Assembly (NCBI GenBank): GCA_033722135.1
Contig: JAWVZO010000001.1
Span: forward strand, 1-54,173
DNA length: 54,173 nucleotides
From: Gammaproteobacteria bacterium
Lineage (GTDB): Bacteria; Pseudomonadota; Gammaproteobacteria; QNFN01
Direction of reading: 5' to 3'
Under the pieces are notes generated by a model that saw only the letters and a list, made by a program, of their open reading frames with translations, searched no databases and had not been told where the DNA came from. The first letter of the stretch is position 1. Each line of letters starts with the position of its first letter. The position numbers and the translations under genes are program-made. Below are positions 1 to 14,369 of this stretch, one piece after another.

Positions 1-651
1 CAGCGCCGAGAAGACGAAGATCTGGCTCTTGGTCCGCGCCGTGTCGACCCCCATGGTCTGCGCGGCGACCTCGGAGCCGTGCACCGCGCGCAGCGCGCGC
101 CCGGCCCGCGAGTCGATGATGTTCAGCGAGACCAGGACCGTCGCCAGCACCACCACGGTCATGACCGCGTACCACTCGAGGTCGCTGTCGATCACGTGGC
201 CGAACAGCGAGAGCGACGGGATGCCGCCCATGCCGTCGGGCCCACCGGTCCAGTTGGTCGCCTGGACCATGATGATGTTGACGATGATGCCGAAGCCGAG
301 CGTCGCCATCGCCAGGTAGTGCCCCTTGAGCTTGAGGATCGGCCGCGAGATCACGGTGGCGACGACGTAGACGACCGCCAGCCCGAACGCCATCGCCAGC
401 CACGGGCTCCACCCGTAGCGGGTGGTGAGGATCGCGGAGGCGTAGGCGCCCATGCCGAAGAAGGCGGCATGGCCGAGCGAGATCTGCCCGGCGTAGCCGA
501 TGAACAGGTTCAGGCCGACGGCGAGCACGATGTTGAAGCCGATGGTCACGCCGACCACGGTCACGAAGTAGTTGTCCGGGAAGAACACCGGCAGCAGGGC
601 GACCGCAACTGCGAACGCGAGGAAGCCGCGAAGTCGGCGGAAGCTCGTCAT
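1..651 (-). CDS. livM: ABC transporter permease, LivM family (N-terminal part only; the gene runs off the left edge)
   Basis: Missing from the ORF track because it is truncated. Manual minus-strand translation from the ATG at 651 gives MTSFRRLRGFLAFAVAVALLPVFFPDNYFVTVVGVTIGFNIVLAVGLNLFIGYAGQISLGHAAFFGMGAYASAIL..., which is typical LivM. The ATG overlaps the livH stop (ATGA, 648-651). Confidence 0.85.
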   Translation of the reverse strand, partial: MTSFRRLRGFLAFAVAVALLPVFFPDNYFVTVVGVTIGFNIVLAVGLNLFIGYAGQISLGHAAFFGMGAYASAILTTRYGWSPWLAMAFGLAVVYVVATVISRPILKLKGHYLAMATLGFGIIVNIIMVQATNWTGGPDGMGGIPSLSLFGHVIDSDLEWYAVMTVVVLATVLVSLNIIDSRAGRALRAVHGSEVAAQTMGVDTARTKSQIFVFSAL

Positions 652-1523
652 ACCCGGTCCGAGGCCTTGCGTCCGAAGAGACCGCTGGGGCGGAAGATCA
701 GCACCAGCAGGATGATCGTGAAGGCAATCGCGTTCTTGTAGCCCGACGAGATCAGCCCGGCGCCGAGCGACTCGAGGACGCCGAGCAGCAGGCCGCCGGC
801 CACCGCGCCCATCGGGTTGCCCATGCCGCCGAGGATCGCCGCGGAGAAGCCCTTGAGGCCGACCATGATCCCGGCGTCGTAGGAGGTGAACGCGATCGGC
901 GCGAGCAGCACCCCGGCCACCGCGCCGAGGAAGGCGGCGAGGCCGTAGGAGAAGAGCAGCATCATGCGCACGTTGATGCCCATCAGCTGGGCGGCGGTGA
1001 CGTTGCTGGCGCAGGCCAGGATCGCCTTGCCCATCAGCGTGCGGTCGAAGAAGAAGCGGACCACGAGCACCATCAGCGCCGTGATCCCCATCACCCACAA
1101 GTTCTGCGGCAGCATCGTCGCCGAGCCGATCGAGATCGGCTCCTCGCCGGAGAAGGAGGGCAGCGCGTGGATGTCCTTGCCCCAGATCAGCAGCGCGGCG
1201 CCGCGCAGGAAGATCGCGGCGCCGATGGTGATGATGATCGTCGAGATCACCGTCGCTCCGCGCGCCGGCTCGATCGCGAATTTCTGCAACGCCATGCCGA
1301 TCCCGGTGGTGATCATCACCGCGCCGAACAGCGCCACCGGGTAGGGCATGCCGACCGCGAGCAGCGACACCGCGCTCATCGCCCCGATCATGACGAACTC
1401 GCCCTGGGCGAAGTTCACCACGCCGGAGGCGTTGTAGATGATCGCGAAGCCGAGACCGACCAGCGCGTAGGTCGAGCCGACCGTGACGCCGGTGATCAGG
1501 AACTGCAGGATCTGGTCGAACAT
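648..1523 (-). CDS. livH: ABC transporter permease, LivH family
   Basis: 291-aa ORF MFDQILQFLITGVTVGSTYALVGLGFAIIYNASGVVNFAQGEF..., a polytopic LivH-type sequence in a livK-livH-livM gene order. Confidence 0.9.
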   Translation of the reverse strand: MFDQILQFLITGVTVGSTYALVGLGFAIIYNASGVVNFAQGEFVMIGAMSAVSLLAVGMPYPVALFGAVMITTGIGMALQKFAIEPARGATVISTIIITIGAAIFLRGAALLIWGKDIHALPSFSGEEPISIGSATMLPQNLWVMGITALMVLVVRFFFDRTLMGKAILACASNVTAAQLMGINVRMMLLFSYGLAAFLGAVAGVLLAPIAFTSYDAGIMVGLKGFSAAILGGMGNPMGAVAGGLLLGVLESLGAGLISSGYKNAIAFTIILLVLIFRPSGLFGRKASDRV

Positions 1524-1600: not shown

Positions 1601-2749
1601 TCAGTTGACGAGCGTCCAGTCGCCGTTCTGGATCTCGAGCATCTTGAATGCATCGAGGTCCAGGCCGAGGTGGTCGTCCGGGCCCATGTTGAACACGCCC
1701 CCGGTGCCGATGAAGCCGCTGGTGTTCTCGATCTCGGTGCGCACCTTCGCCTTGTCGGTCCCGCCGGCGCGGGCGATCGCCTCGATGGCGATGAACAGAC
1801 CGTCGTAGGCGTGGCCGCCAAAGGTCGAGACCGGGCCGTGGACCGCTTCGTAGGTGTTCTTGTAGGCGAGCAGCACGTCCTTCTGCGGATCGCTGTCGGG
1901 CAGCTTGTCGGCGACCAGCAGTGCGGCGGCCGGCAGGCGCACGCCGTTGGCGGCGTCGCCGGCGAGCTCGATGAACTTCTTCGACGCCACGCCGTGCGAC
2001 TGGTAGACCGGCAGGTCGATGCCGAGCTGGCGGACGTTCTTGGTGACGATCGCCGGACCGGTGCCGAAACCGAAGTTGAGGATCGCCTCGGCGTCGGTCG
2101 CGCGGATCTTGGTCAGCTGGGTCGTCATGTCGGTATCCTTGTTGCCGTACGTCTCGTCGGCGACGATGGAGATACCGTACTCGGGCGCCAGTTCCAGGCT
2201 CTGCTGGCGACCCGACTTGTCGAAGCCGCCGTCGCCGCTGATCAGGGCGACCTTGGAGATGCCGCGGGCCTTCATGTCCTCGTAGATCTTGGCCGCGGCC
2301 ATGCGGTCGGTGTGCGGCGTCTTGAACACCCACTTCTTGACCGGCTCGACGATCTTGATCGACCCGGCGAGGGAGATGAACGGGATGCCGGCCTTCTCCA
2401 CCTCGGGGATCACCGCGAGCGTCTCGCCGGAGGCCGAGCCGCCGACGATGACGTCGACGCGGTCGCGCTGGATCAGGCGCTTGGCGAAATCGACCGCCTT
2501 CTGCGGGTTGGCGCCCGAGTCGTAGTGCACGAGCTCGACCTCGCGACCGAGGACGCCGCCGTCGGCGTTGACGATGTCGACGTACATCTGCAGCGTCTTG
2601 AGTTCCGGGTCACCGAGGAACGAGGCGGGACCGGTGACGGCGAGGAAGGTGCCGATCTTGATCGGCTCGGCGGCCTGGAGCGGGCTGACCGCCAGCACCA
2701 TTGCGACGAGGCCGGTGGCGAGAGCCGATACGAGGCGTTGCTTGACCAT
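1601..2749 (-). CDS. Periplasmic substrate-binding protein, Leu/Ile/Val-binding (LivK-like) family; true ligand unknown
   Basis: 382-aa ORF with a signal peptide (MVKQRLVSALATGLVAMVLAVSPLQAAEP) and type-I periplasmic binding-protein features. It is the first gene of the liv-type operon. Confidence 0.85.
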   Translation of the reverse strand: MVKQRLVSALATGLVAMVLAVSPLQAAEPIKIGTFLAVTGPASFLGDPELKTLQMYVDIVNADGGVLGREVELVHYDSGANPQKAVDFAKRLIQRDRVDVIVGGSASGETLAVIPEVEKAGIPFISLAGSIKIVEPVKKWVFKTPHTDRMAAAKIYEDMKARGISKVALISGDGGFDKSGRQQSLELAPEYGISIVADETYGNKDTDMTTQLTKIRATDAEAILNFGFGTGPAIVTKNVRQLGIDLPVYQSHGVASKKFIELAGDAANGVRLPAAALLVADKLPDSDPQKDVLLAYKNTYEAVHGPVSTFGGHAYDGLFIAIEAIARAGGTDKAKVRTEIENTSGFIGTGGVFNMGPDDHLGLDLDAFKMLEIQNGDWTLVN

Positions 2750-2827
2750 GTGATCTCCTCCTGGGATGCGGTTGTTGTGCGATCGCGTCCTGGGCTTATC
2801 TGCTCGTTGGCGGCCCCTCGAGCGATC

Positions 2828-2851
2828 GTTGACGTTTACGTAAAGGTCAAC
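2828..2851. promoter_or_regulatory. Operator-like nested palindrome, site 1 (GTTGACGTTTACGTAAAGGTCAAC)
   Basis: 24-nt palindrome with one symmetric mismatch pair. The core TTTACGTAAA is perfectly self-complementary. It forms an AT-rich island in GC-rich DNA about 90 bp upstream of the livK-like ATG (2749). Confidence 0.55.
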
Positions 2852-2964
2852 AGACCAGGCTCTACTCTAGCGGCGATTCCCGGCAGGCGCAATACCTTTC
2901 GCTCGCCGGGCACCGCGACGCTATTCTGCTCCGGGAGGTCGACACGACGCCACCTCGTGCGGGG

Positions 2965-2994
2965 TTGTGTATTACGTTTACGTAAAGGTAAGCT
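2965..2994 (+). promoter_or_regulatory. Candidate sigma70-type promoter of the thioesterase/Mo-enzyme operon (-35 TTGTGT, 18-nt spacer, -10 TAAGCT)
   Basis: Hexamers at 2965-2970 and 2989-2994. Operator site 2 fills the spacer. The start codon is 64 nt downstream of the -10 element. Assigned by motif inspection only. Confidence 0.3.
2972..2991. promoter_or_regulatory. Operator-like nested palindrome, site 2 (TTACGTTTACGTAAAGGTAA)
   Basis: Shares the 16-mer ACGTTTACGTAAAGGT with site 1 (2832-2847 and 2974-2989). The centres are 142 bp apart. Site 2 lies about 76 bp upstream of the thioesterase ATG (3058). Confidence 0.55.
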
Positions 2995-3057
2995 AGCCAC
3001 CTTCCAGGGGCCTGCCAATGGAGCGTGCCCCGACCGCACAACCGGAGGAGATACCCG

Positions 3058-3462
3058 ATGAAAGAGAGCCTCGCCAAAGGGGTGACGACCACCACGCGCG
3101 TCGACATCGACGCCGGACGCACGATCGACTTCATGGGCGAGGAGGGGCGCGTCTACGCCACGCCCGAGCTGGTCCGCGACATCGAGATGACCTGCCGCAA
3201 CCTGCTCCTCGAGCATCTCGACGAGGGCGAGGACTCGGTCGGCACCCGCGTCGAGATCGACCACATCGGTGCGACGCTGATGGGCATGTGGGTCGAGATC
3301 ACGGTGACCGTGAGCGCCGTCGAGGGCCGCGCGGTGAGCTTCGACGTCACCGCCCGCGACAACGTCGAGGACGTGGCCCGCGGCAAGCACAACCGCTTCG
3401 TCATCGACGTCGCGAAGACCGCCGAGCGGCTCAAGGGCAAGGCGGCCAAGGCCGGGCTGTGA
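3058..3462 (+). CDS. Hotdog-fold acyl-CoA thioesterase (FlK-like family)
   Basis: MKESLAKGVTTTTRVDIDAGRTIDFMGEEGRVYATPELVRDIEMTCRNLLLEHLDEGEDSVGTRVEIDHIGATLMGMWVEITVTVSAVEGRAVSFDVTARD... fits the FlK/hotdog thioesterase pattern. I prefer the ATG at 3058 to the track start at 3025. Confidence 0.7.
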   Translation: MKESLAKGVTTTTRVDIDAGRTIDFMGEEGRVYATPELVRDIEMTCRNLLLEHLDEGEDSVGTRVEIDHIGATLMGMWVEITVTVSAVEGRAVSFDVTARDNVEDVARGKHNRFVIDVAKTAERLKGKAAKAGL

Positions 3463-6194
3463 GCGCGCCCGCGGAGAAGACCGTCAGGAAGGTCCCGACC
3501 TACTGCTACCAGTGCGTGGCGGGGCCGGACCTGCTGACGGTCAAGGTGGTCGACGGCGTCGCCACCGAGGTCGAGCCCAATTTCACCGCGGCCGAGGTCA
3601 CTCCCTCGGCCGGCAAGGTGTGCGTGAAGGCGTTCGGGCTGGTGCAGAAGATGTACAACCCGAACCGCATCCTGACGCCGATGAAGCGCACCAACCCGAA
3701 AAAGGGCGTCGACCAGGACCCGGGCTTCGTGCCGATCTCCTGGGACGAGGCGCTCGACGCCATCGCCGAGCGGCTCAAGACGGTGCAGGCGCGGGGTGCC
3801 AACGACGAGTCGGGCTACCCCCGTATCGCCGCGAGCTTCGGCGGCGGCGGCACACCGACCTACTATATGGGCACGCTGCCGGCGTTCCTCGCCTCGATCG
3901 GCCCGATCGATTTCGGCTTCGGCAGCGGCCAGGGCGTCAAGTGCTACCACTCGGAGCACCTCTACGGCGAGCTGTGGCACCGCGCCTTCACGGTCGCGCC
4001 CGACACGCCGAACACCGAGTTCATGCTCTCGTTCGGCTACAACGTCGAGGCCTCCGGCGGTGTGTGCGGCGTCAAGCGCCACGCCGACGCGCGGGCGCGC
4101 GGCGCCAAGCGGGTGCAGATCGAGCCGCACCTGTCGGTGACCGGCGCCTGCTCGGCCGAGTGGGTGCCGATCCGGCCGAAGACCGATGCGGCCTTCATGT
4201 TCGGCCTGCTGCACGTGATGCTCCACGAGCAGCGCAACCGCCTGGACATCCCGTTCCTGAAGCACCGCACCACCTCGCCGTACCTGGTCGCGCCGAACGG
4301 TTTCTTCCTGCGCGATCCCGCGACCCGCAAGCCGCTGGTCTACGATCTCTCGGGCCAGCGCGCGGTGCCCTTCGACACGCCCGGCATCGACCCGGCGCTG
4401 GAAGGATCGTTCAAGGTTTCGGGCCTCGAGATCGGCGCCGACGACGACGTCTGGGAACACCGCCTGGAGAAGGTCCAGCCGGCGTTCCAGAAGCTGATCG
4501 ACCACACGGCGGAATACACCCCCCTCTGGGCCGGCCGGATCTGCGACGTGCCGCACAAGGTGATCCGGCGCCTCGCGCTGGAGTTCCTCGACCACGCCCG
4601 CGTGGGCGAGACCGTCGAGGTCGAGGGCCGCGAACTGCCGTACCGGCCGGTGTCCATCGCGCTCGGCAAGACCGTCAACAACGGTTGGGGCGGGTTCGAC
4701 TGCTGCTGGGCGCGCACGCTGATGGCCTGCCTGGTCGGCGCGCTCGAGGTCCCGGGCGGGACGCTCGGCACCACGGTGCGACTGAACCGGCCGGCGACCG
4801 ATCGCAACCTCAGCGTCAAGGCGCATCCCGACGGGTTCATGGACTACCCGATGAACCCGACCGACAAGGCCGGCTGGCTCGCCAAGCCCGACGTGCGCAA
4901 CGCCAACCGGACACTGATCCCGCTGGTCGCCAACTCGCCGTGGAGCCAGGCGCTGGGACCGACCCACCTCGCCTGGATGCAGCAGCAGAAGGCACCGGAG
5001 CACTGGCCGCAGGCGACGCCGCCCGACATCTGGTTCGTCTACCGCACCAACCCGGCGATCTCGTTCTGGGACACCCGGCAGATCACCGAGGTGATGGCCC
5101 GGTTCCCGTTCACGGTCTGCTTCGCGATGACCGCCGACGAGACCAACCACTTCGCCGACATCCTGCTGCCCGACGCCACCGACCTGGAGGGGCTGCAGCT
5201 GATCCGCGTCGGCGGCACCAAGTTCATCGAGCAGTTCTGGGACTACCAGGGCTTCGCGCTGCGCCAGCCGGTCGCCGAGGCGCAGGGCGACGCGCGCGAC
5301 TTCACCTGGATCGCCACCGAGCTCGCCCGGCGCAGCGGCGTGCTCGACAAGTACGTCAAGGCGGTCAACCGGGGCGCGGCCGGCGTGCCGCTGAAGGGTG
5401 AGAACTACGACTTCTCGCTCGCCGATGACGAACCGCCCAGCGTCGAGCAGGTCTGGGACGCGACCTGCCGCGCGGCAAGCGCCGAGATCACCGACGGTGC
5501 CGAGGACCAGGGGCTCGACTGGTACCGCGAGCACGGCTTCCGGCTCGCCCCGTTCCCACGGTTGAAGTGGTACCTCTATGCCGCGATCGAGGACGCCGGC
5601 CTGCGCTTCGAGCTGCCCTACCAGGAGCGGCTGATGCGCATCGGCAAGCAGCTCGGCCGCCGTCTCCATGAACACGGCATCAGCTGGTGGGACGAGCAGC
5701 TCGAGGAGTACGACCCGCTGCCCGAGTACAAGAACTACCCGGAGATGTGGGAGAAGGCGCTCGAGCGCAACTTCAACGTCGACATCCGCGACTACCCGTT
5801 CTGGGCGGTCACCGCGCGCAGCATGCAGTATGCCTGGGGCGGTAACGCCGGCATCCAGATGATCCGCGAGGTGGCCGAGAACATAGGCGGCCACGGTGGC
5901 GTGGTGATCAACAGCGGCAAGGCCGCCGAGCTCGGGCTCGCCGACGGGGACCTGGTCGAGATCCGCTCGCCGCTCAACGCCACCCGCGGCCGGGTCGTGA
6001 CGCGCCAGGGCATCCGTCCGGACACGCTGCTGATGATCGGCCAGTTCGAGCACTGGGCGACGCCGTTCGCCAAGGATCTCGAACTGCCGAGCCTCAACAA
6101 GCTGGTGCCGATGCTGCTCGACCTGACCGACTCCACCGGATCGGGTTCGGACCTCGCCCGGGTAAGCATCTCGCGCGTGGAGAAGGCGCCATGA
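3459..6194 (+). CDS. Molybdopterin oxidoreductase catalytic subunit (DMSO-reductase superfamily), PadB-like, no Tat signal
   Basis: The 911-aa reading starts at the GTG at 3459, which overlaps the thioesterase stop (GTGA). The N-terminus is VSAPAEKTVRKVPTYCYQCVAGPD.... The sequence has molybdopterin-enzyme length and organisation. The upstream part of the 1058-aa track ORF is Arg-rich junk that overlaps the thioesterase gene. Confidence 0.8.
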   Translation: MSAPAEKTVRKVPTYCYQCVAGPDLLTVKVVDGVATEVEPNFTAAEVTPSAGKVCVKAFGLVQKMYNPNRILTPMKRTNPKKGVDQDPGFVPISWDEALDAIAERLKTVQARGANDESGYPRIAASFGGGGTPTYYMGTLPAFLASIGPIDFGFGSGQGVKCYHSEHLYGELWHRAFTVAPDTPNTEFMLSFGYNVEASGGVCGVKRHADARARGAKRVQIEPHLSVTGACSAEWVPIRPKTDAAFMFGLLHVMLHEQRNRLDIPFLKHRTTSPYLVAPNGFFLRDPATRKPLVYDLSGQRAVPFDTPGIDPALEGSFKVSGLEIGADDDVWEHRLEKVQPAFQKLIDHTAEYTPLWAGRICDVPHKVIRRLALEFLDHARVGETVEVEGRELPYRPVSIALGKTVNNGWGGFDCCWARTLMACLVGALEVPGGTLGTTVRLNRPATDRNLSVKAHPDGFMDYPMNPTDKAGWLAKPDVRNANRTLIPLVANSPWSQALGPTHLAWMQQQKAPEHWPQATPPDIWFVYRTNPAISFWDTRQITEVMARFPFTVCFAMTADETNHFADILLPDATDLEGLQLIRVGGTKFIEQFWDYQGFALRQPVAEAQGDARDFTWIATELARRSGVLDKYVKAVNRGAAGVPLKGENYDFSLADDEPPSVEQVWDATCRAASAEITDGAEDQGLDWYREHGFRLAPFPRLKWYLYAAIEDAGLRFELPYQERLMRIGKQLGRRLHEHGISWWDEQLEEYDPLPEYKNYPEMWEKALERNFNVDIRDYPFWAVTARSMQYAWGGNAGIQMIREVAENIGGHGGVVINSGKAAELGLADGDLVEIRSPLNATRGRVVTRQGIRPDTLLMIGQFEHWATPFAKDLELPSLNKLVPMLLDLTDSTGSGSDLARVSISRVEKAP

Positions 6195-6838
6195 CCCGTT
6201 ACGTCATGGTCGCCGACCTCGAGCGCTGCGTCGGCTGTCAGACCTGCACCGCCGCGTGCAAGCACACCAATGCCACCGCGCCCGGCGTGCAGTGGCGGCG
6301 GGTGCTCGACATGGAGGTCGGCGAATACCCCGACGTGCGCCGCGCGTTCGTGCCGGTCGGCTGCATGCACTGCGCGGATCCGCCCTGCATGCACGTCTGC
6401 CCGACGACCGCCACCGGGCAACGCGCCGACGGCCTGGTCACCATCGACTACGACATCTGCATCGGCTGCAGCTACTGCGCCGTGGCCTGCCCCTACCAGG
6501 CACGCTACAAGGTCGACCGTCCCGCCCAGGCCTACGCGGAGGGACGCATGCGCAACGAGACCAACCGCGAGGATCCCGGCCGCCAGGGCGTGGCGCAGAA
6601 GTGCACCTTCTGCATCGAACGCATCGACTACGGCCAGGCCCACGGCCTGACGCCGGGGATCGACCCCGAGGCCACGCCGGCCTGCGTCAACGCCTGCATC
6701 GCCAGCGCGCTGCAGTTCGGCGACATCGAGGATCCGGAGAGCAACGTCAGCCAGCTGCTGGCCACCCACAAGCACTTCCGCATGCACGAGGAACTGGGCA
6801 CCGAGCCCGGCTTCTACTACCTCTGGGAGGACCAATGA
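6191..6838 (+). CDS. 4Fe-4S ferredoxin-type electron-transfer subunit (DmsB/PadC-like)
   Basis: 215 aa with four Cys clusters: CVGCQTCTAAC, CMHCADPPCMHVCP, CIGCSYCAVACP and CTFC...CVNAC. There are ATGA overlaps at both ends. Confidence 0.9.
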   Translation: MTRYVMVADLERCVGCQTCTAACKHTNATAPGVQWRRVLDMEVGEYPDVRRAFVPVGCMHCADPPCMHVCPTTATGQRADGLVTIDYDICIGCSYCAVACPYQARYKVDRPAQAYAEGRMRNETNREDPGRQGVAQKCTFCIERIDYGQAHGLTPGIDPEATPACVNACIASALQFGDIEDPESNVSQLLATHKHFRMHEELGTEPGFYYLWEDQ

Positions 6839-7707
6839 GCGCCGACGGCAAGCCCTGGCTGCAGGCCCACTGGGACGGGCATGTGGCCGTCAATTTCCTC
6901 ACCGGGGGCAGCGGGAGCGGCCTGCTGGTGATCGCCGGGCTGGCCGCGCTCGCCGGGCAACCTCTGGCGCTGGCCTCCTGGATCGGCCTGCTTCTGGTCG
7001 CCGGCGGTCTCGCCCAGGTCTCGCTCCACCTCGGACGCCCCGTCCGCGGCTGGCGGGCGCTGACCAACCTGCGCACCTCGTGGATGACCCGCGAGGCCTA
7101 TGCGGCCGCGGCACTGATGCCCTGCGCGCTGCTCGCCGCCCTGACGGACTCGCCCCTGGCGGGGATGCCGGCCGCGCTCGCAGCCGCCGCGTTCCTGTAC
7201 TGCCAGGCGCGCATCCTGAAGGAGTCCCGGGGCATCCCGGCGTGGCGCGAGCCGCGCATCGTGCCGCTGATCGTGCTCACCGGCCTCGCCGAGGGCGCGG
7301 CGATCTACCTGCTGATCCTGCTGCCCGGCGCGCACACGTTCGCCGTGCTCGTCGTCGGCGCGGTGCTGCTCGCGGTGCTGGCGGCCCGCTACGTCGCCTG
7401 GAAGCAGTACCGCACGGCGCTGCATGGCAGGGCCCCGCGCGCTTCCGAGGAGGTCCTCGAACGCGCGGAGGGCCCGTTCACGGGTGCGGGTCACGTCGCC
7501 CCGGTCCTCCTGCTGCTGGTCGCCGCGGGCGTGCCTCAGGCCCAGGGGATCCTGGCGACGCTCGCGGCCGCGACCGTGCTCCTCGCCGGCTGGGGAGTGA
7601 AGTTCGCGATCGTGACCCGGGCCGGCTACAACCAGGGATTCGCGATCGACCACACCCCGTCGCGCGGCTCCGGCACGGGCGGCGTCGGCAGCAAGCCAGG
7701 CTGGTGA
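6835..7707 (+). CDS. Integral membrane anchor subunit (DmsC/NrfD/PadD-like)
   Basis: The ATG at 6835 overlaps the preceding stop. The product MSADGKPWLQAHWDGHVAVNFLTGGSGSGLLVIAGLAAL... is 290 aa and hydrophobic with multiple helices. Confidence 0.75.
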   Translation: MSADGKPWLQAHWDGHVAVNFLTGGSGSGLLVIAGLAALAGQPLALASWIGLLLVAGGLAQVSLHLGRPVRGWRALTNLRTSWMTREAYAAAALMPCALLAALTDSPLAGMPAALAAAAFLYCQARILKESRGIPAWREPRIVPLIVLTGLAEGAAIYLLILLPGAHTFAVLVVGAVLLAVLAARYVAWKQYRTALHGRAPRASEEVLERAEGPFTGAGHVAPVLLLLVAAGVPQAQGILATLAAATVLLAGWGVKFAIVTRAGYNQGFAIDHTPSRGSGTGGVGSKPGW

Positions 7708-7810
7708 CCCCGGAGAGTGACGTGCCGTGAAATCAACGCATGGCGGTCGAGCCGCCTTGTGCGAAGTCGAGAACATCAAATAAAACATGAAGTCTGAGGA
7801 GGAGCTTCCG

Positions 7811-9121
7811 ATGAGCGACAGTCCGTACCACTTCCAGCCCGACATCGAGACGCTGCCGCGCGAACAACTGGCCACGCTCCAGCTCGAGCGCCTGCAGAAG
7901 ACCCTGGCCCACGCCTACGCCAACGTGGACCATTTCCGCGAGCGCTTCGACGAGGCGGGTGTCAAGCCGGGCGACCTGACCGCGCTGGAGGATCTCGCGC
8001 GCTTCCCGTTCACCGTCAAGGACGACCTGCGCGCCAACTACCCGTTCGGCATGTTCGCCGTGCCCCGCGAGCAGGTGGTGCGCGTGCACGCCTCCTCGGG
8101 CACCACCGGCAAGCCGACCGTGGTCGGCTACACGCGCGACGACATCGCCACCTGGGCCAACCTGATGGCGCGCTCGATCGCGTCGGCCGGCGGACGGCCC
8201 GGCGACATCCTGCACAACGCCTACGGCTACGGGCTGTTCACCGGCGGTCTGGGCGCCCACTACGGGGGCGAACGGCTCGGCTGCACCGTCACGCCGATGT
8301 CCGGGGGCAACACCGAGAAGCAGATCGTGCTGCTTCAGGATTTCGGCGCGCGCGTGCTCTGTGCGACGCCTTCCTACGCGCTCAACATCGCCGAGGTGGC
8401 CGAGTCGGAGGGCATCGACCTCGCCGCCGGCCCCCTGAAGATCGGCGTGTTCGGGGCCGAACCGTGGTCCGAGGCGATGCGCGAGGAACTCGATCGGCGC
8501 CTCGGCATCCGGGCCGTGGATATCTACGGCCTCTCGGAGATCCTCGGGCCCGGCGTGGCCGCGGAGTGTGTCGAGGAGCGCGCCGGCCTGCACGGCTGGG
8601 AGGACCACTTCCTGTTCGAGATCATCGACCCCGAGACGGGCGAGCCGAAACCGATGGGCGAGTCGGGCGAACTGGTGATCACGACGCTGACCAAGCAGGC
8701 ACTGCCGATGATCCGCTACCGCACGCGCGACATCACCCGCCTGAGCAACGAGCCGTGCAGCTGCGGACGCAGCCACGTGCGCATCCTGCGCGTGACCGGT
8801 CGTAACGACGACATGCTGATCATCCGCGGCGTCAACGTCTACCCGTCGCAGATCGAGGCGGTCATGGTCGGGTTCGCGGGCATCGCGCCACACTACCAGC
8901 TGGTGGTGAGCCGCGAGGGCTCGATGGACACCCTCGCCGCGGAGATCGAGGCCGCGCCCGAGACTTCGGCCAGCGACTACCCGAAACTCGCCAGCGAGAT
9001 CCGCCACCACATCAAGTCGATGATCGGCGTCACCTGCGACGTGATGCTCAAGGCGCCGGGCGAAGTGCCGCGCTCCCAGGGCAAGGCGATCCGGGTGCGC
9101 GACGAGCGGCCGAAAAGCTAG
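7811..9121 (+). CDS. paaK: Phenylacetate-CoA ligase
   Basis: [46 protein letters not shown]...[17 protein letters not shown]... is the classic PaaK pattern. The ATG at 7811 follows a GAGGAGGAG Shine-Dalgarno sequence. Confidence 0.9.
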
Positions 9122-9145: not shown

Positions 9146-9173
9146 GGGGCGGCCCAAGGGTCGCCCCTTTCTC
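9146..9173 (+). terminator. Rho-independent terminator after paaK
   Basis: Stem GGGGCGGCC / GGTCGCCCC (9146-9167, one G-U pair, 4-nt loop) followed by TTTCTCGTT. Confidence 0.65.
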
Positions 9174-11785: not shown

Positions 11786-12418
11786 ATGTCCACCCAACCC
11801 GCCAGCACGCCGACCCACGCCGAGCAGACGATCGCCTACCGCATCGGGGATCGGCTGTACCTGAGCATCACGGACCGGTGCACGCTGGTCTGCGATTTCT
11901 GCCCGAAGACCCTCGGCTCGCGCCGCGTGCACGACTACGACCTGACCCTCGACCACCGTCCCGAGTTCGACGAGGTCGTCGCGGCGATCGGCGACCCGAC
12001 CGACTACGCCGAGGTGGTCTTCTGCGGCTACGGCGAGCCGACGCTGCGCCTGAACCTCCTCCTCGAGGTGGCGGGCTGGATCAGGGCGCGTGGCGGACGC
12101 GTGCGGCTCAACACCGACGGCCTGGGCAGCCTGGTCAACAAGCGCAACATCCTCCCGGAGATGGCCGGCCTCGTCGACGCGGTCTCGGTGTCGCTGAACG
12201 CCCAGTCCCCGGAGGTCTACAACCGCCACTGCCAACCGGCTCTGCCCGGGGCCTACCAGGCGGTGCTCGCCTTCCTGCAGGAGGCGCCGCGCTACATTCC
12301 CGACGTCACCGCGACGGCGATCGACGGCCTCGAGGGCGTCGACATCGAGGCGTGCCGGCGCGTGGCACGGATGTGCGGTGCGCGCTTCCGCCGCCGCGAA
12401 CTCGACGTGGTCGGCTGA
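11786..12418 (+). CDS. Small radical SAM protein (resembles the TatD-associated rSAM family)
   Basis: The 210-aa product begins MSTQPASTPTHAEQTIAYRIGDRLYLSITDRCTLVCDFCPK, which contains the CX3CX2C motif. It also has FCGYGEPTLRL and VSVSLNAQSPEVYNRHC. The family assignment is from memory. Confidence 0.7.
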   Translation: MSTQPASTPTHAEQTIAYRIGDRLYLSITDRCTLVCDFCPKTLGSRRVHDYDLTLDHRPEFDEVVAAIGDPTDYAEVVFCGYGEPTLRLNLLLEVAGWIRARGGRVRLNTDGLGSLVNKRNILPEMAGLVDAVSVSLNAQSPEVYNRHCQPALPGAYQAVLAFLQEAPRYIPDVTATAIDGLEGVDIEACRRVARMCGARFRRRELDVVG

Positions 12419-12435
12419 ACCAAGGAGCCCTTGCG

Positions 12436-13431
12436 ATGGATCTCGTCTGCCCCGCCGGCAACCTGCCCGCCCTCAAGGGCGCCGTCGACCAGGGTGCCAA
12501 CGCCGTCTACATGGGATTCCGGGACGACACCAACGCGCGCTCGTTCCCCGGCCTGAACTTCAGCGAGGGCAACGCGCGCGAGGGCATCCGCTACGCGCAC
12601 GACAGGGGCACCGCCGTCTACGTCGCGATCAACACCTACCCCCAGCCGGACGGTTTCGCGCGCTGGCAGGCGGCGGTCGACCATGCCGCCGAGCTCGGCA
12701 TCGACGCCCTGATCGTCGCCGACATGGCGGTCCTGGACTACGCCATGCGCGCCCATCCCGAACTGTCCCGCCACCTGTCGGTGCAGGGATCCGCCAGCAA
12801 TTACGAGGCGATCCGCTTCTACCACGAGGAGTTCGGCGTGAAGCGCGTCGTGCTGCCCCGGGTGCTCTCGCTGGCCCAGGTCGCCCGGGTCATCGAGCAG
12901 GTGCCCGTCGAGGTCGAGGTGTTCGGCTTCGGCGGCCTCTGCGTGATGGTCGAGGGGCGCTGCACCCTCTCCTCCTACGCCACCGGCCAGTCGCCGAACA
13001 GCTGCGGCGTCTGCTCCCCGGCCAGCGCCGTGCGCTGGACGGAGACCGAGCAGGGCCTGGAGTCGCGCCTCGGCGAACTGCTGATCGACCGCTACGCCGA
13101 CGGCGAGCACGCCGGCTACCCGACCATCTGCAAGGGGCGCTACAAGGTCGACGAGGCCACCTACTACGCCATCGAGGAGCCGAGCAGCCTGAACACCCTC
13201 GAACTGCTGCCCGAGCTGCAGGCGATGGGCGTGCGCGCGATCAAGATCGAGGGACGCCAGCGCAGCCCCGCCTACGTGCGCCAGGTGGCGAAGGTGTGGC
13301 GCGAGGCGCTCGACGCCGTGGCCCGCGACCCCGACGGCTTCGCGCCGCGCCCCGAGTGGCGCGCGGCGCTCGGCAAGGTCTCGGAGGGCGCGCAGACCAC
13401 GCTGGGTGCCTACCACCGGCCCTGGCAGTGA
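12436..13431 (+). CDS. ubiU: O2-independent ubiquinone biosynthesis protein UbiU (peptidase U32 family)
   Basis: MDLVCPAGNLPALKGAVDQGANAVYMGFRDDTNARSFPGLNF...KIEGRQRSPAYVRQVAKVWREA...TLGAYHRPWQ is nearly collinear with E. coli YhbU. An AAGGAG Shine-Dalgarno sequence sits at 12422. Confidence 0.93.
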   Translation: MDLVCPAGNLPALKGAVDQGANAVYMGFRDDTNARSFPGLNFSEGNAREGIRYAHDRGTAVYVAINTYPQPDGFARWQAAVDHAAELGIDALIVADMAVLDYAMRAHPELSRHLSVQGSASNYEAIRFYHEEFGVKRVVLPRVLSLAQVARVIEQVPVEVEVFGFGGLCVMVEGRCTLSSYATGQSPNSCGVCSPASAVRWTETEQGLESRLGELLIDRYADGEHAGYPTICKGRYKVDEATYYAIEEPSSLNTLELLPELQAMGVRAIKIEGRQRSPAYVRQVAKVWREALDAVARDPDGFAPRPEWRAALGKVSEGAQTTLGAYHRPWQ

Positions 13432-13457
13432 CCGCCGTGCCCTCCACGACGTCCACG

Positions 13458-14369
13458 ATGCCCCGCCGGCTGTCTCTCGGTCCGGTGCAGTACCACTGGC
13501 CGCGGGAGCGGCTGGAGGCGTTCTACGATGAGGTCGCCTCCGGTCCCGCCGACGTGGTCTATCTCGGCGAGACGGTCTGCTCGAAACGGCGCGCGCTGCG
13601 CCTCGACGACTGGCTGGGACTGGCCGAGTCGCTGCAGGCGGCGGGCAAGGAGGTGGTGCTCTCCAGCCTCGCGCTGATCGAGGCCGAGTCCGAGCTCAAG
13701 CGCCTGCGGCGCCTCTGTGCCAACGGCCGGTTCGCCGTCGAGGCCAACGACGTCGGCGCCGTGCGCCTGCTCAGCGAGCAGGACGTGGCGTTCGTCGCCG
13801 GCCCCTCCGTGAACATCTACAACCAGCACACGCTGGGCCTGCTCGCGCGGCGCGGCTTGCGTCGCTGGGTGATGCCGTTCGAGCTGTCGCGCGCCACGCT
13901 GGCCGGGATCCTCGCCGACGCCCCCGAGGGGGTCGAGACCGAAGTCACCGTGTACGGCCGCATTCCCCTGGCCTGGTCTGCCCGCTGCTTCACCGCACGG
14001 CACCACGACCTGCCCAAGGACGCCTGCGAGGAGATCTGCGACCGCTACGCCGACGGCCTGCTGGTGCGCACCCGCGAGGAGGCGCCGTTCCTCGCCTTCA
14101 ACGGCATCCAGACCCAGTCGGCGCAGACCTACACCCTGGTCGAGGAACTCGTCGACATGGCCGGGCTCGGCGTCGACCTGGTACGCATCTACCCGCAGGC
14201 GGAAGGGACCCACGACATCCTCGCGACCTTCGCCGAGCTGCGCGCGGGCCGCGTTGCGGTCGCCGACGCGAGGCGTCGTCTCGAGGAGCGGATGCCGGTC
14301 GGGCCCTGCCGCGGTTACTGGCACGGCCAGGCGGGCATCGAGTCGGAACTGGCCGGCGCGCTCAGTTGA
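13458..14369 (+). CDS. ubiV: O2-independent ubiquinone biosynthesis protein UbiV (peptidase U32 family)
   Basis: MPRRLSLGPVQYHWPRERLEAFYDEVASGPADVVYLGETVCSKRR...ARCFTARHHDLPKDACEEIC matches E. coli YhbV. An alternative GTG at 13428 (GTGA overlap with ubiU) cannot be excluded. Confidence 0.9.
   Translation: MPRRLSLGPVQYHWPRERLEAFYDEVASGPADVVYLGETVCSKRRALRLDDWLGLAESLQAAGKEVVLSSLALIEAESELKRLRRLCANGRFAVEANDVGAVRLLSEQDVAFVAGPSVNIYNQHTLGLLARRGLRRWVMPFELSRATLAGILADAPEGVETEVTVYGRIPLAWSARCFTARHHDLPKDACEEICDRYADGLLVRTREEAPFLAFNGIQTQSAQTYTLVEELVDMAGLGVDLVRIYPQAEGTHDILATFAELRAGRVAVADARRRLEERMPVGPCRGYWHGQAGIESELAGALS

Follow-up and report, generated by a model that had tools for sequence, protein, structure and literature searches.

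A probable anaerobic phenylacetate oxidation operon with a translationally coupled thioesterase gene in a tidal-flat gammaproteobacterium

Near the start of a 54,173-nucleotide stretch of DNA from a gammaproteobacterium of the GTDB lineage QNFN01 (GenBank assembly GCA_033722135.1, contig JAWVZO010000001.1, positions 1 to 54,173; hereafter the window) lie five same-strand genes resembling the pad genes for anaerobic oxidation of phenylacetate, arranged divergently from genes for an ATP-binding cassette (ABC) importer. The window is the first contig, C1, of a 301-contig, 2.66-Mb assembly with a G+C content of about 70%, rated 100% complete with 3.7% contamination. The features at this locus, numbered from the first position of the window, are as follows.

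1-645, minus strand: LivM-like ABC permease gene, truncated by the window start, which is the contig end (Pfam BPD_transp_2, 107.3 bits)
648-1523, minus strand: LivH-like ABC permease gene (Pfam BPD_transp_2, 115.4 bits)
1601-2749, minus strand: gene for a LivK-type periplasmic binding protein (Pfam Peripla_BP_6, 192.2 bits)
2750-3057: divergent control region read from the sequence, with two related palindromes and the ribosome-binding site of the thioesterase gene
3058-3462, plus strand: 405-bp gene for a PadK-type (FlK-family) hotdog thioesterase of 134 aa (Pfam FlK, PF22636, 109.5 bits)
3459-6194, plus strand: padB, predicted catalytic subunit with a molybdenum-bis(pyranopterin guanine dinucleotide) cofactor (Mo-bisPGD), 911 aa, GTG start (PF00384 and PF01568)
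6191-6838, plus strand: padC, predicted four-cluster ferredoxin subunit, 215 aa (16 Cys in four groups)
6835-7707, plus strand: padD, predicted DmsC-type membrane anchor, 290 aa (PF04976)
7787-9121 (probable start 7811), plus strand: gene for a PadJ/PaaK-type phenylacetate-CoA ligase (TIGR02155, 628.8 bits)
9146-9173, plus strand: intrinsic terminator-like hairpin followed by a T run at the operon end, read as GGGGCGGCCC...GGGTCGCCCC TTTCTCGTT

Domain searches agree with the array given in the original prediction, namely a thioesterase, a 911-aa molybdopterin subunit, a four-cluster ferredoxin, a membrane subunit, and PaaK, and by Pfam the predicted divergent LivKHM-type uptake genes comprise one binding protein and two permeases. 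The three start-to-stop overlaps described there were all read directly in the sequence, each 4 nt long (GTGA at 3459-3462, ATGA at 6191-6194, and ATGA at 6835-6838), and the thioesterase gene at the head of the series is preceded by the ribosome-binding site GGAGGAG. The ligase gene follows on the same strand 79 nt beyond padD, and the sole terminator-like hairpin that we read lies after it. Translation of the ligase more likely begins at 7811 than at 7787, as a Shine-Dalgarno sequence, GAGGAAGAG, accompanies the former and the alignment to the PadJ protein of Sedimenticola also begins there. We are fairly confident that the stretch forms one operon, padK-padB-padC-padD-padJ in the Aromatoleum nomenclature, facing a divergent LivK-type ABC importer. 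Between importer and operon lie the two palindromes (2828-2851 and 2972-2991), which share the core TTTACGTAAA and are candidate operators for a regulator.

Judged from its sequence, the 911-aa protein is orthologous to PadB, sharing 73% identity with the Sedimenticola selenatireducens protein and 60.7% over 910 aa with that of G171, one of 151 Rhodocyclaceae genomes that were scanned. G171 carries two EbdA copies scoring above 2260 bits, over the cut-off, and a 12-gene run, padA-B-C-D-E-F-G-H-I-J-x-padK, that matches EbN1_C30910 to C31020 (PMC9765128 Table S1); on these sequence matches we take it to be Aromatoleum aromaticum EbN1, and its proteins are called EbN1-like below. Relatives of PadB number in the thousands across gamma-, alpha-, and betaproteobacteria (901-923 aa, 60-94% identity), many of them carrying the Joint Genome Institute name phenylacetyl-CoA:acceptor oxidoreductase; named Aromatoleum or Thauera proteins were not among the matches of the two large PadB homologue searches. 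An exhaustive HMMER scan represented this tight family at 63% identity, followed by a few neighbors at 39-49% and then a drop to about 32%. In a FastTree phylogeny of 85 rows, the 79 rows that are family members, including EbN1-like, Thauera-like, and Sedimenticola proteins, form a single clade (local support 100%) distinct from the relatives at 39-49%, and the window PadB falls within a starred 23-row gammaproteobacterial clade that includes Sedimenticola. The expectation that the catalytic subunit would group with PadB and not with Psr/Phs/Ttr-type subunits is thus borne out, and the broader proposal of an arylacetyl-CoA alpha-oxidising module of the PadBCD type gains support from orthology to the Sedimenticola and EbN1-like clusters and from synteny.

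The same comparisons bear on a quite different reading, in which the enzyme would be a respiratory reductase of the Psr/Phs/Ttr/Arr type minus its twin-arginine translocation (Tat) signal, with the ligase and thioesterase genes as unrelated neighbors. ArrA (E = 7.8e-26) and PsrA are indeed the closest solved structures by sequence, through the N-terminal third alone, and the iron-sulfur subunit scores on the DsrO, QrcC, ArrB, and NrfC models. All of these scores, however, lie far below the family cut-offs, and PadB itself reaches no NCBIfam cut-off (PhsA, the best, at 145.7 vs 694 bits, ArrA at 96.6 vs 1600, and TtrA at 37.3 vs 1750). The PadB clade stands separate, synteny with the ligase and thioesterase genes is conserved across classes, and an invariant Gly occupies the canonical position of the Cys ligand. 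ArrA and PsrA (PDB 6cz7, 2vpz) share with the window enzyme a fold family and an alpha/beta/gamma organization whose smaller subunits are a four-cluster ferredoxin and an NrfD/DmsC-type anchor, but they are Tat-exported reductases with four Cys at the FS0 iron-sulfur site and a Cys ligand to Mo, whereas PadB has three Cys and a Pro, the Gly, and no Tat leader. We regard this reading as negligible, a respiratory-reductase identity being contradicted by the cut-offs, the synteny, and the tree.

Closer inspection of PadB supports both sequence peculiarities that had been proposed for it. The N-terminus (VSAPAEKTVRKVPTYCYQC...) is without a twin-arginine motif or a hydrophobic region, PadB homologues share the same start position, and the leader is also absent from the EbN1-like and Sedimenticola proteins; the in-frame extension 5' of the start is Arg/Gly/Pro junk produced by reading the thioesterase gene off-frame, which rules out an upstream start with a Tat motif. 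The predicted C-x2-C-x35-C spacing, with Pro in place of the third Cys, is likewise confirmed, as the pattern C16-x2-C19-x3-P23...C55 is invariant at all four residues in 31 homologues. The resulting CxxCxxGP pattern is shared by EbN1-like PadB and reaches the 39-49% relatives (P0246-P0264). At least one of these relatives, P0253, carries a Tat-like leader, RRRFIKAG, which raises the possibility of a periplasmic sister enzyme that shares the odd FS0 site.

At the Mo site, pairwise and profile alignments place the ligand Cys of ArrA, PsrA, and a formate dehydrogenase opposite the invariant Gly157, within GSGQGVKCYHSEH. A TorA-type template instead aligns its Ser at position 153, so that the templates disagree by up to four residues, and Ser156 and Cys162 are also invariant in the 31 homologues. 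The PadB clade may use an unusual cofactor set, with a three-Cys FS0 cluster, probably [3Fe-4S], and a canonical Mo-ligand position (Gly157) devoid of a side chain. This combination recalls arsenite oxidase, also an enzyme that works in the oxidative direction.

The other two subunits fit the same architecture. PadC has its 16 Cys arranged in four CxxCxxCxxxC-type groups, has no signal sequence, and is 72.6% identical to Sedimenticola PadC and 65.7% to the EbN1-like protein. PadD is recognized by Pfam as DmsC (28.7 bits vs a cut-off of 22.3) and is less similar to its counterparts (41.8% and 38.8%, respectively). It has about eight hydrophobic helices in pairs, with the long loops and both termini on one side, together with 18 Lys/Arg, and with very short turns on the other. 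The positive-inside rule would then place the long loops in the cytoplasm, giving an N-in/C-in protein, which is the reverse of the orientation of DmsC and PsrC. Together with a PadB that has no Tat leader, this pattern points to a cytoplasm-facing active site, as would suit a CoA-ester substrate.

The hotdog protein is, by sequence comparison, an orthologue of PadK. Its PF22636 score of 109.5 bits exceeds the cut-off of 27, and it is 64% identical to the Sedimenticola thioesterase and 64.5% to EbN1-like PadK. A gap-free HMMER alignment to structures of FlK equates FlK Thr42, Glu50, His76, and Arg120 with T35, E43, H69, and R113; among 27 pad-linked homologues the last three never vary and T35 is kept in at least 90%. 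Among 80 related loci that we compared, a thioesterase gene was found by tblastn in the pad cluster of about 66, mostly directly upstream of padB, making the thioesterase-first, translationally coupled layout the commonest gene order. In some Rhodocyclaceae the gene instead lies beyond a divergent padJ or behind a gene for a 695-aa CoA-binding protein, and in the EbN1-like genome the sole FlK-type gene occupies the padK position. EbN1 padK (ebB192) is annotated as "predicted thioesterase 3.1.2.-" and is induced on phenylalanine (PMC9765128 Table S1). The suggestion that the coupled hotdog protein acts on the glyoxylyl-CoA product agrees with this annotation and with the conserved triad and Arg; it is not new, being already the annotation of the EbN1 orthologue, and we regard the window protein as a candidate phenylglyoxylyl-CoA hydrolase.

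Comparison with characterized thioesterases helps to place this assignment. The Streptomyces cattleya fluoroacetyl-CoA thioesterase FlK (PDB 3kv7, 3p2q) belongs to the same Pfam family and retains the catalytic residues at about 30% identity, but the context in the window points to a 2-oxoacyl-CoA and not to fluoroacetyl-CoA as substrate. The conserved Arg, associated in FlK with the alpha-fluorine, might by analogy read the alpha-keto group of the substrate, which would account for activity on phenylglyoxylyl-CoA but not on phenylacetyl-CoA. Such a specificity for phenylglyoxylyl-CoA over phenylacetyl-CoA hydrolysis was reportedly observed by Rhee and Fuchs in 1999, in work on Thauera aromatica that is also said to have described the biochemistry of the phenylacetyl-CoA oxidising enzyme, with subunits of 93, 27, and 26 kDa. 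The benzoylformyl-CoA thioesterase PglD is proposed to carry out the same reaction, phenylglyoxylyl-CoA to phenylglyoxylate, but it belongs to the O2-dependent biosynthesis of phenylglycine in Streptomyces, and its amplified gene fragment, at about 800 bp, has roughly twice the length of the 405-bp gene in the window (PMC7089894).

The distribution of the thioesterase also speaks to the possibility that it is a PaaI-like housekeeping or proof-reading enzyme that frees CoA from stalled thioesters, with PadB itself releasing phenylglyoxylate. Three-subunit preparations of Rhee and Fuchs reportedly still hydrolysed phenylglyoxylyl-CoA, in line with this reading, and three Rhodocyclaceae genomes (among G128, G069, G152, and G099) have a PadB homologue at 59-60% identity and no FlK-type match at E <= 1e-5. 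Yet the gene is present in nearly every cluster and translationally coupled to padB, its catalytic triad and Arg are conserved, and the hydrolase step has an Enzyme Commission number of its own, EC 3.1.2.25. Free phenylglyoxylyl-CoA has moreover been detected in EbN1 cells on phenylalanine (PMC9765128). We therefore consider a housekeeping role unlikely, though it is the least improbable of the alternatives raised here, and favor a dedicated phenylglyoxylyl-CoA thioesterase.

Separately, the protein of about 695 aa noted above, with CoA_binding_2 and Succ_CoA_lig domains and a likeness to ADP-forming acyl-CoA synthetases, pairs with an FlK-type thioesterase in 11 loci. Most of these are from betaproteobacteria (Rhodocyclaceae and their relatives), but L016, L018, and L063 are also among them. 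Examples lie at these positions.

L103 14763-16847: CoA-binding protein of about 695 aa
L048 7182-9263: CoA-binding protein of about 695 aa
L018 7222-9258: CoA-binding protein of about 695 aa

The ligase shares 72% identity with Sedimenticola PadJ and 57.4% with EbN1-like PadJ, and its gene is syntenic with padBCD in more than 30 loci. By family name alone, it could have been part of an aerobic paa regulon that merely abuts the molybdoenzyme genes, and the original prediction had named such membership as a finding that would undo it. A profile search of the 100%-rated assembly found no PaaA, however, and the 79-nt same-strand spacing and the conserved adjacency, along with the likeness to Sedimenticola PadJ, also speak against this origin, which we consider highly improbable. 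Membership of the ligase in an aerobic paa regulon is accordingly rejected, on PaaA absence and conserved adjacency. The neighboring importer probably takes up arylacetate: orthologues of its binding protein at 59-88% identity occur near the pad cluster in about 20 loci from gamma-, alpha-, and betaproteobacteria, mostly of the short form described below, although the protein itself falls under every NCBIfam cut-off for Leu/Ile/Val or urea.

Beyond the shared genes, pad clusters come in two forms. In about 19 of the 80 loci padEFGHI stand between padD and padJ, and in many others, as in the window, thioesterase-padBCD is followed directly by padJ. Sedimenticola is the closest cultured relative, with four of the five proteins 64-73% identical to those of the window and PadD at 42%, and it has the same thioesterase-padBCD head, but its cluster continues with padEFGHI before padJ. 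Both transcripts and peptides of its pad genes increase on phenylacetate, with nitrate or with perchlorate (PMC4453571). The EbN1 pad system (EC 1.17.5.1) is likewise a three-subunit membrane enzyme with a CoA ligase and an FlK-type thioesterase, with orthologues of its PadB, PadC, PadD, PadJ, and PadK in the window. It differs in that its thioesterase gene stands last, behind padJ and the 695-aa CoA-binding protein, and not first and overlapping padB, while the window cluster is without padA and padEFGHI and has the adjacent ABC importer in addition.

These two forms are central to a further alternative, that the module performs the same chemistry on another arylacetyl- or acyl-CoA, such as 4-hydroxyphenylacetyl-CoA or indoleacetyl-CoA, with the short form representing a different pathway. 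A ligase marginally below the PaaK cut-off, a binding protein that matches no characterized specificity, and the absence of PadEFGHI here and in four other short-form genomes would all be in keeping with it. Against it, the short and long forms intermingle in the PadB phylogeny, such that at least 3-5 changes are required, which argues against a change of substrate, and the nearest long-form relative, Sedimenticola, is a proven phenylacetate degrader with a ligase closely similar to that of the window. The PadB family also remains tight, its identities staying at 59% or above in three proteobacterial classes. Overall, a different substrate seems rather improbable to us, slightly more so than a housekeeping thioesterase.

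Phenylacetate thus remains the preferred substrate, and we hold with good confidence that the operon is an anaerobic phenylacetate oxidation module, converting phenylacetate to phenylglyoxylate. In the mechanism that we propose, phenylacetate or a very close arylacetate would be imported and converted by the PaaK/PadJ ligase to its CoA thioester. A cytoplasm-facing, membrane-bound PadBCD, with PadB as the Mo-bisPGD subunit, PadC carrying four [4Fe-4S] clusters, and PadD as the quinone-reactive anchor, would then carry out a four-electron oxidation at C-alpha, taking the oxygen from water and passing the electrons to the quinone pool. The FlK-type thioesterase, from the gene coupled to padB in translation, would hydrolyse phenylglyoxylyl-CoA. 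An enzyme different from PadEFGHI would turn the resulting phenylglyoxylate into benzoyl-CoA, and this product could enter a genome-encoded benzoyl-CoA reductase or Box route. The sequence comparisons establish what the genes encode, their orthology, the synteny, and the retained catalytic residues, and from these we deduce the substrate of the module, the direction in which electrons flow, the topology, the thioesterase substrate, and the downstream enzyme.

For the step from phenylglyoxylate, the original prediction had reported no phenylglyoxylate oxidoreductase genes in the window and had left the downstream route open. The first part holds and extends to the whole genome, while the second can now be narrowed by a candidate. 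On contig C150 (L101 2389-6461) lie, in this order, genes for the gamma subunit of a pyruvate oxidoreductase (POR)-type enzyme, a 546-aa fusion protein, and the alpha and beta subunits; the fusion joins a GltD-like module (Fer4_20 and Pyr_redox_2) to a two-cluster delta ferredoxin. Five relatives (L018, L025, L034, L063, L073) have the same four genes 1-5 kb away from their short pad clusters, with proteins 49-68% identical to those of C150. The C150 enzyme would follow the logic of PadEFGHI, in which a 2-oxoacid oxidoreductase works with a flavoprotein that binds NAD(P), but its flavoprotein is a different one. It is the best candidate for a substitute phenylglyoxylate oxidoreductase, a tentative assignment that we would put somewhat short of even. 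Held with a little less confidence are two wider proposals, that the short pad module feeds this undescribed NAD(P)-linked phenylglyoxylate oxidoreductase, and that the PadB clade runs the unusual cofactor set outlined above.

As had been suggested, we also searched the genome for benzoyl-CoA pathway genes, and found benzoyl-CoA reductase subunits BcrC (711 bits) and BcrB (829 bits) and dienoyl-CoA hydratase Dch (392 bits) on contig C208, and BoxB (909 bits) on contig C9, all above cut-offs. No Oah (TIGR03200) match exceeded its cut-off in the 301-contig assembly, whose fragmentation prevents this from being read as absence. On contig C86 (L102 1699-5354), a ferredoxin, a protein of the aldehyde ferredoxin oxidoreductase family (AFOR_N, 277 bits), and a PadH-like flavoprotein (287 bits) together resemble, by sequence, an AorABC-like aldehyde oxidoreductase, which would be compatible with anaerobic degradation of phenylalanine.

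Several observations weigh against phenylacetate oxidation as the function of the operon, or against parts of the proposed route. Identities of 60-73% leave substrate specificity unfixed, and the ligase, at 628.8 bits, stops just under the TIGR02155 cut-off of 646.3. Canonical PadEFGHI is absent from the whole genome: the best PadI match scores 193.8 against a cut-off of 700, PadG matches score 279-284 against 700, and the PadH-like match scores 287 against 475, with Sedimenticola PadI, as the positive control, reaching 789.5 bits. With no Oah above its cut-off, a full route to ring cleavage is undemonstrated in the 301-contig assembly. The C150 genes are unlinked to the pad operon in the assembly, and a paralogous POR-type gamma/alpha/beta set is present on contig C186 (1-2851). 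Finally, the FdhD-type padA that marks the EbN1 and Thauera clusters is not in the window cluster, and its best match in the genome, on contig C93, is 27% identical.

Two of these points have a wider context. In an alphaproteobacterial relative (L099 6483-10979), a C186-type set is followed by its own GltD-like/delta fusion. A padA-type gene occurs in 1 of the 80 loci and so is not a family-wide feature. By Pfam, EbN1-like PadA (L103 3264-4085) is an FdhD/NarQ protein (259 bits) and not a thioesterase, which hints that PadB may need a sulfurated Mo cofactor; EbN1 padA (ebA5392), the gene ahead of padB, is listed as "accessory protein" and is induced on phenylalanine (PMC9765128).

O2-independent routes that hydroxylate and oxidise a CoA-activated methylene group are few, and this module is among them. 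To our knowledge, the PadBCD enzyme has never been solved structurally, and the thioesterase step is without an experimentally assigned gene. The copy described here adds another lineage, an uncultured, small-genome tidal-flat gammaproteobacterium, as well as evidence for the thioesterase-first coupled layout as the common one and a concrete candidate for the phenylglyoxylate step, and short pad modules prove to be common in uncultured sediment proteobacteria. The known picture is otherwise unchanged, and proof of the thioesterase, the chemistry of the Mo and FS0 sites, and the substitute for PadEFGHI are questions of the enzyme family and not of this locus.

Within the family of the source organism, PadB was found in all 6 of the other genomes searched (5 of them in its genus), compared with 1 of the 24 other families searched in its class. 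One Rhodocyclaceae genome, G099, has three PadB copies. A single tidal-flat metagenome accounts for 0.88 of the sampled words and probably represents the source sample; runs with small shares (5-8% of words) were excluded from naming habitats. Contigs from RNA libraries of three sediment studies match the genes for the thioesterase, PadB, PadC, and the ligase at 88-95% likeness and span the junctions between the first two of these genes and between padB and padC; they derive from relatives and are no proof of transcription here. The same contigs, from relatives about 90% alike, hardly cover the intergenic regions or padD, which is the least conserved gene, and we attach no meaning to this gap.

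Downstream of the operon the window continues with unrelated genes, encoding an OmpA-family protein, a PfkB kinase, a radical-SAM protein, a UbiU-like U32 peptidase, glycogen phosphorylase, and Rho. Within this series, a small radical-SAM gene followed by the gene for the UbiU-like U32 peptidase (Pfam 219.7 bits) occupies positions 11786-14369. Ubiquinone is the reported electron acceptor of PadBCD, and this gene pair would be compatible with O2-independent synthesis of ubiquinone.

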